Assembly (NCBI GenBank): GCA_964016885.1
Contig: OZ024740.1
Span: forward strand, 129,270,001-129,334,000
DNA from: Eledone cirrhosa
Lineage: Eukaryota
Direction: 5' to 3'
Length of the DNA stretch: 64,000 nucleotides
Part shown: in pieces, positions 49,758-50,135 of the stretch
Numbering within the stretch: the stretch's first letter is position 1
Layout of the letters: every line of letters starts with the position of its first letter
The notes under the pieces: generated by a model
The model's input: only the letters and a program-made list of their open reading frames with translations
The model's database searches: none
Told to the model about the DNA's origin: nothing
Position numbers and translations under genes: made by a program

Positions 49758-50135
49758 GTGTATTTTTGCAATACACTCTATGCTTAATTAAAAGCATTTT
49801 GAAGATCATACGCTATTGTTTTACAGTAGTGACAATATCACTTACTTAAATGTTCATCAAACATGCGAGATAAGCTGACAGTGTTCTGTTTCGTACTTGT
49901 TGGTACTTATCAAAGCTCACTACTCTCCCTGTTTGCTGAAAATTATGTTTGTTGGATTCTTATAGAAATTGTTGCTCTGAAATAGAGATATATATATGAA
50001 TGTATATATGGTGTATTTTGCAATACACTCTATGCTTAAGTAAAAGCATTTTGAAGACCATATGCTATTGTTTTAAAGCAGTGACAATGTCACTTACTTA
50101 AATTTTCAGCAGACAGGGCACCAATTCTACTTTAT
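49758..50135 (-). mobile_element. Family E: ~253-bp monomer plus partial tandem copy plus short inverted tip, in (TA)n
   Basis: GTGTATTTT(T)GCAATACACTCTATGCTTAA at 49758 and 50011. The tip GCACCAATTCTA at ~50118 is in the opposite orientation. Confidence 0.85.
49870..49920 (-). ncRNA. Type I hammerhead (family E), U3-A8 core variant
   Basis: Minus strand: GTGAGCT-TTGATAA-GTAC.CAACAA.GTAC-GAAA-CAG.AACA.CTG-TC-AGCTTAT; all three stems intact; GUC triplet. Confidence 0.85.

Follow-up and report, generated by a model that had tools for sequence, protein, structure and literature searches.

A predicted type I hammerhead with a U3-A8 core pair marks two separate clades of a retrozyme-like repeat family in Eledone cirrhosa

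Introduction

The C3-G8 pair is central to the structure of the active hammerhead ribozyme.

Natural departures from this pair have been described. Perreault et al. 2011 (PMC3088659) report natural C3-G8 to U3-A8 covariation as well as U10.1·U11.1, and Cervera and de la Pena 2014 (PMC4209133) used a dedicated descriptor to collect about 1,300 minimal U3-A8 hammerheads from the Cercyon Penelope-like elements (PLEs) of Schistosoma mansoni and also treat dimeric hammerhead cutting. An initial annotation of the DNA analysed here took U3-A8 variants to retain activity, which is what PMC3088659 states, whereas pairwise mutagenesis of a type III hammerhead (PMC9901934) found rescue by the G3-C8 swap alone and not by U3-A8. 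At the base of helix II, a U·U mismatch is present in the axolotl hammerhead HHR_Amex2 (PMC7229834, Cervera and de la Pena 2020), and a 2026 preprint by Li, Clavereau and Pollet (bioRxiv 10.64898/2026.07.22.740005) derives non-LTR retrozymes from Penelope-like elements.

Results

A predicted U3-A8 hammerhead and its C3-G8 comparator

The window, that is the whole stretch of 64,000 nucleotides analysed from contig OZ024740.1 of E. cirrhosa, carries on its reverse strand a predicted hammerhead with U at position 3, called the 49913 copy after the coordinate of U3, which is made up as follows:

49907..49913, (-) strand: hammerhead core strand TTGATAA, read as U3 U4 G5 A6 U7 A8 A9, with U3 at 49913 and A8 at 49908
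49893..49906, (-) strand: helix II of 4 bp, with G10.1 (49906)-C11.1 (49893) as closing pair and a loop of 6 nt
49877..49892, (-) strand: G12 A13 A14 (GAAA from 49892), helix III and C17 (49877, GUC)
49871..49919, (-) strand: entire predicted type I hammerhead including proximal helix I (49914-49919 with 49871-49876)
49735..49967, (-) strand: main piece of the insertion (locus L001), monomer positions 228-317 then 1-141
49967..50117, (-) strand: upstream piece in the same orientation, a partial second unit, monomer positions 12-162

Three helices surround the core, with helix I open as in type I, U4 G5 A6 A9 G12 A13 A14 A15.1 U16.1 and H17 are all present, and the predicted cut falls between 49877 and 49876. 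Pair 3-8 is Watson-Crick as U-A, the canonical C3-G8 letters being absent from this copy, which alone has U3-A8 among those descriptor matches in the window that show three helices. Helix III measures 4 bp counted from A15.1-U16.1, and its tetraloop has two private changes relative to the palindromic family form. With the helices enforced, the hammerhead fold lies 0.9 kcal/mol above the minimum-energy fold. An 86-nt piece of the copy, folded without constraint, does not do better than its shuffled versions (z -0.98). The predicted hammerhead folds show an A-rich loop 2 of 5-6 nt and an internal loop in helix I. When the 64-kb window was scanned with Rfam no family reached its cut-off, and microsatellite matches to miRNA models filled the E-value list; the best match of the 49913 motif is a weak one to Hammerhead_HH9 (RF02275, clan CL00010), at 19.6 bits against a cut-off of 52. 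The L001 insertion contains a single ribozyme and terminates at the 3' end common in the family, in a (TA)n tract, and about 65 nt of monomer are absent at the joint of its two pieces at 49967.

The initial annotation set this core beside that of a second copy, located as follows:

24556..24580, (+) strand: core CTGATGA (24556-24562), T10.1 at 24563, T11.1 at 24575, and GAAAC; C3-G8 with a U10.1·U11.1 helix II
24481..24752, (+) strand: main piece of the comparator insertion (locus L031), monomer positions 207-317 then 1-174, ending in (TA)n
24313..24483, (-) strand: inverted 5' piece of the comparator insertion, monomer positions 47-214

The letters had been read correctly, TTGATAA at 49913-49907(-) and CTGATGA at 24556-24562(+), and the copies are indeed homologous (74-83% identity across pieces of 119-233 nt). 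Compared with the 30 nearest loci, the 24556 copy has lost 12-14 nt after GAAAC, a deletion that takes the GUC site along with the preceding 3' half of helix III and the first part of the helix I 3' strand, and its T·T at 10.1/11.1 is a mismatch inherited within a subfamily (26 of 161 rows in an earlier set, reduced from 192 by removal of antisense hits and duplicates). The two copies are members of different subfamilies and do not represent one recent change. With a broken comparator and copies from different subfamilies, selection cannot be read from this two-copy comparison, as the initial annotation had done. Both copies are likely inert insertions, with one ribozyme each and that at 24556 broken.

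Other elements share the window. An inverted pair at 1779(-) and 2219(+), also found in L060, belongs to another hammerhead family with a CTGACGA core and a palindromic 4-nt helix III region. Two more hammerhead-like motifs with C3-G8, at 19060(+) and 37598(-), stem from further families; helix III is short and palindromic in both, and relatives occur in several loci. A broken reverse transcriptase, which we take to be Penelope-like, occupies 15327-17099(+) in three overlapping frames, and two long ORFs of 728 and 1,204 aa at 29379-35020(+) presumably represent a near-intact LINE with endonuclease and RT.

A dispersed tandem repeat of about 320 nt

The family is a non-coding, non-LTR retrozyme-like repeat of about 320 nt that carries a predicted type I hammerhead; successive ribozymes on the same strand are spaced 313-330 nt apart, which defines a tandem monomer. 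A search of the 3.0-Gb genome with a linker pattern outside the ribozyme gave 5,965 matches (reversed control, 0), several per locus and hence not a count of insertions, and copies are dispersed over many contigs. Insertions are 5'-shortened, often with an inverted piece at the 5' side, and reach 780 nt in length. Their usual end points are monomer positions 139-141 and 161-173, and (TA)4 lies within 25 nt in 386 of 700 flanks, a proportion given without a computed background rate. One monomer folded as a circle gave -84.7 kcal/mol, without a shuffle control. The 5' ends of insertions are not piled at the predicted cut, starts between -9 and +10 being limited to 2 segments of 76 and 2 of 73; a 5'-end footprint of cutting was rejected after the first apparent pile-up proved to be an artefact of the reference length.

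When 700 flanks were queried with the window's PLE-like frames, no shared ORF junction indicative of an autonomous partner was found, and PLE-like fragments, present in 14 of the 327 loci searched, lie at varying distances from the repeat. The family was not seen as the pLTR of an autonomous Penelope-like element joined to an RT/GIY-YIG ORF. Judged by unit length, tandem arrangement, a single type I hammerhead, high copy number and dispersal, it would fit the animal non-LTR retrozymes. Runs X1-X3 were rejected as a source of RNA: their unique flanks are evenly covered and they look like DNA. A pattern scan of the metagenome gave 8 matches, of which 0 were homologous beyond the pattern, and yielded no outgroup; the 8 metagenome loci stand outside all trees. 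A canonical CTGATGA hammerhead-like motif with identical helix II letters and unrelated flanks was seen at metagenome L232:490-540. At L297 (C1:82388500-82397500), four diverged copies at a spacing of about 1.27 kb group in the tree and represent a local tandem duplication.

Single changes at positions 3 and 8 occur at the neutral level

With GTAC/GTAC required in helix II, exact patterns matched 1,407 U3-A8, 106 C3-G8, 14 U3-G8 and 12 C3-A8 copies, the reversed controls of the four patterns giving 0 matches, and a narrower pattern admitting other 10.1-11.1 pairs matched 154, 398, 5 and 6, respectively. The linkage of 3 and 8 implied by the initial annotation was borne out over these genomic copies, with an odds ratio of 888, uncorrected for descent, among 1,539 copies that are not independent events. 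Nor are single mutants as frequent as double ones. As judged by loop length, the parent was U3-A8 for 14 of 14 U3-G8 and for 8 of 12 C3-A8 copies. We derived a neutral expectation for single mutants from transition rates outside the pattern, measured in 54 and 22 copies: among singles derived from U3-A8, 8 C3-A8 were seen against 13.7 expected and 14 U3-G8 against 13.5, and the remaining classes gave 4 against 3.1 and 0 against 3.4. C>T and G>A are the commonest kinds of change, at 2-3% per site. Because the single mutants match the level of neutral decay, they are attributed to decay after insertion and not to lineages. They sit as tips in the trees, and an unmutated core stands beside the mutant one in 12 of 37 single-mutant loci (some loci counted twice). 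The C3-A8 pair L242/L255, tried as a possible lineage, is instead a segmental duplication with flanks 97% alike.

About a quarter of the copies are U3-A8, namely 19 of 70 in a core-blind sample that also held 44 C3-G8 and 7 other copies; U7 is found in nearly all U3-A8 copies, and C3-G8 lineages have U, G or A at position 7. Searches built on CUGANGA do miss U3-A8 copies, as the initial annotation had warned and as was already published with the U3-A8 descriptor of PMC4209133; here they would pass over that quarter of the family.

U3-A8 is the inherited state of two clades

Since copy counts do not amount to independent events, a tree was needed. For copies picked through the core a single switch was enough; the core-blind sample, chosen through the linker (75 rows, 70 kept, 5 under 230 nt left out), added further lineages with C3-G8 and a second group with U3-A8. 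For the latter, clade II, a dedicated pattern gave 232 matches, with L306-L335 sampled and 19 of these 30 rows left out as too short or already present; among the 100 matches listed of the 232, a hand count gave 90 with U3-A8, 2 with C3-G8 and 8 with a single change, four kinds of which were seen. In the main tree (MAFFT-aligned), which comprises 118 copies and from which core columns 3-9 were removed, two changes were recovered in 200 of 200 bootstrap trees, the bootstrap being not fully settled. Clade I, which contains the 49913 copy, has a support of 100/99 and clade II of 100/98, and a ladder of C3-G8 subfamilies separates them. A single U3-A8 clade was rejected with p-AU 0.00013 (107 rows) and, on linker columns alone, with p-AU 0.0016, the groups for both tests having been named after the tree was seen. 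The tree from linker columns only has poor resolution and requires 5 changes, 2 of them forced by starred branches. U3-A8 is thus the inherited state of two separate subfamily clades. Among changes shared by at least 4 copies, 3 and 8 each change twice, both on the same two inner branches, a coincidence whose chance we put at 0.0035 by a rough estimate in which branches are weighted by their other changes, and the independent switch events number only two.

The tree is unrooted, and its root is not fixed because all subfamilies lie about 3-6% from their own majority; under any root, at least one switch runs from C3-G8 to U3-A8. Minimum-variance rooting lands among C3-G8 lineages. Scans of terminal branches pointed to a root elsewhere than at clade I, though in one of them the grouping put several rows in the wrong place, and a different linker stretch of 95 nt gave divergences without a clear gradient (p 0.055). 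An ancestral U3-A8 with reversion to C3-G8 was considered and dropped when the core-blind sample revealed further C3-G8 lineages. Clade II acquired an A10.1·A11.1 mismatch with U3-A8 on its switch branch and diversified nonetheless. On one clade II branch a 4-nt duplication results in a 5-bp helix III, and the hammerhead fold is there the minimum-energy fold (3 of 3).

Constraint on the core and the helices

At nine invariant core nucleotides we counted 0 inherited changes and 21 at tips. The remaining columns of the ribozyme have 107 inherited and 400 tip changes (p 0.008), and the comparison with every other column, at 163 inherited and 1,154 tip changes, gives p 0.064. Among U4 G5 A6 A9 G12 A13 A14 A15.1 U16.1 and H17, the only inherited change in the family is C17/U17. 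The linker outside the ribozyme has 56 inherited per 754 tip changes, against 107 per 400 in the ribozyme helices (p 8e-14), and this low level of change between sources suggests that the linker holds a constrained signal for transcription or reverse transcription.

Covariation is seen at II.2 (U-A/C-G), II.3 (A-U/G-C), 2.1-1.1 (U-A/C-G) and a distal helix I pair. In 23 hand-picked copies 95.7% of cells are paired and two-sided changes occur at 6 of 13 pairs, slid controls reaching at most 38.5%; compensated helix changes continue inside both U3-A8 clades, through several later source sequences. Four length variants of helix III are perfectly palindromic and three others are not, so that dimeric and monomeric cutting would both be possible. 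For 8 clade I U3-A8 examples, a competing fold is 2.6-8.2 kcal/mol stabler than the hammerhead fold.

The 10.1-11.1 pair runs through A-U, U·U, A-U and G-C along the C3-G8 ladder, and G-C was retained in clade I as in its sister with C3-G8. The change in stem II is therefore separate from the 3-8 swap. The initial annotation had coupled the two, which is contradicted by the 106 C3-G8 copies that keep G10.1-C11.1 and by the passage of this pair through A-U and U·U elsewhere.

Discussion

Selection rather than decay, proposed initially from two copies, finds its support at the level of the family, where 26 single mutants stand against 106 and 1,407 double ones and the swap falls on two branches. 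On the strength of these sequence comparisons we consider it probable (about 0.78) that only units with a working core have served as sources of new copies, so that 3 and 8 change only jointly. Tandem copies would be transcribed and then cut to unit length by the hammerhead, either as monomers via the 4-bp helix III or as dimers via the often palindromic helix III, and the unit RNAs would be circularised and copied back into (TA)n tracts, we infer by a Penelope-type reverse transcriptase acting in trans. Because each source element would have to keep an active core, a change at position 3 would have to come with one at position 8, as would have happened twice. Points against this reading are the A10.1·A11.1 of clade II, which is expected to weaken cutting, the competing folds of clade I, insertion 5' ends that give no footprint of cutting, the mutagenesis result of PMC9901934, the p of 0.064 for the core against every other column, a count of two independent events, and the lack of an ORF-joined copy in the flanks searched.

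That the 49913 copy became U3-A8 through two chance mutations after insertion deserves almost no credence: both changes are of the commonest kind (C>T, G>A), but the state is common to at least 1,407 copies and the copy lies inside clade I, which refutes this account. The two switches might also not be independent, clade I having received its core from a contemporaneous clade II by conversion or a double template switch, with a single point-mutational origin. Positions 3, 7 and 8 all go to clade II letters on the clade I branch, the subfamilies are similar in age, template jumps are frequent in the insertions and an intermediate subfamily is absent. The flanks (-3 to -1, helix II and linker) nevertheless follow the C3-G8 subfamily with G-C, which would confine the tract to at most 10 nt between -1 and 10.1, position 7 is in any case variable, with 4 changes on inner branches, and most of the seven further changes on the clade I branch are unlike clade II; we regard such a transfer as unlikely. 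Selection for pairing would still hold under it, the repeat of the switch then being a transfer.

Still less probable in our view is that U3-A8 arose by chance in successful sources and was carried along with a weak or idle ribozyme, the RNA remaining as uncut multimers or being cut in trans by C3-G8 subfamilies. The lack of U3-A8 rescue in one mutagenesis study (PMC9901934), the A·A at the helix II base of clade II, the competing folds of clade I and the absence of a pile-up of 5' ends at the cut would all agree with an idle ribozyme, but chance would have to account for two joint changes of 3 and 8 where neither position shows an inherited change on its own, for nine other core positions without inherited change in either clade, and for helix pairs that still covary within both.

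Extending the reading in which only units with a working core become sources, it is conceivable, if rather doubtful, that the fitness valley between C3-G8 and U3-A8 was crossed twice by point mutation without an amplified intermediate, since a neighbour's intact core in tandem transcripts could cut out a half-changed unit (dimeric complementation), and that U3-A8, even with A10.1·A11.1, was favoured since a slower cut would let circles last for round-and-round reverse transcription; the family would then amount to a dated mutagenesis series of the hammerhead made by nature. It suits in any case the questions of how a two-step core change is crossed and of whether selection on retrozymes favours a tuned cut rate over a maximal one. 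It combines a measured neutral baseline for single mutants with a ladder of subfamilies that differ by few ribozyme letters, and offers natural pairs for asking which peripheral changes let U3-A8 and A10.1·A11.1 work.

U3-A8 itself is already known, and a repeated switch placed on a tree has apparently not been recorded: in the literature on the U3-A8 variant and on retrozymes, as covered by a body of texts with few subscription journals and without supplements, we found no repeated, tree-mapped switch in one family. The variants of Perreault et al. 2011, both of which the window family has, are rare, scattered and without a within-family history in PMC3088659, and U3-A8 together with A10.1·A11.1, as in clade II, was not among the variants of it consulted here. 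Natural U3-A8 was previously a matter of scattered covariation; here both states occur in one family with thousands of dated copies. The core covariation is identical to that of the Schistosoma Cercyon PLEs (PMC4209133), likewise in the context of an animal retroelement. The Cercyon motifs are minimal and PLE-linked, whereas the monomer of the window family is non-coding and carries a complete type I motif; unlike Cercyon as described there, this one family has both core states, with the switches mapped on a tree. Among Rfam families, the nearest to the 49913 motif remains HH9, far below its cut-off. The closest likeness in organisation is to the metazoan non-LTR retrozymes (PMC7229834), non-coding tandem units of 170-400 nt with one type I hammerhead and thousands of copies. 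Unlike the non-LTR retrozymes described so far in these sources, about a quarter of the window family is U3-A8, in two clades, and its helix III measures 4-5 bp.
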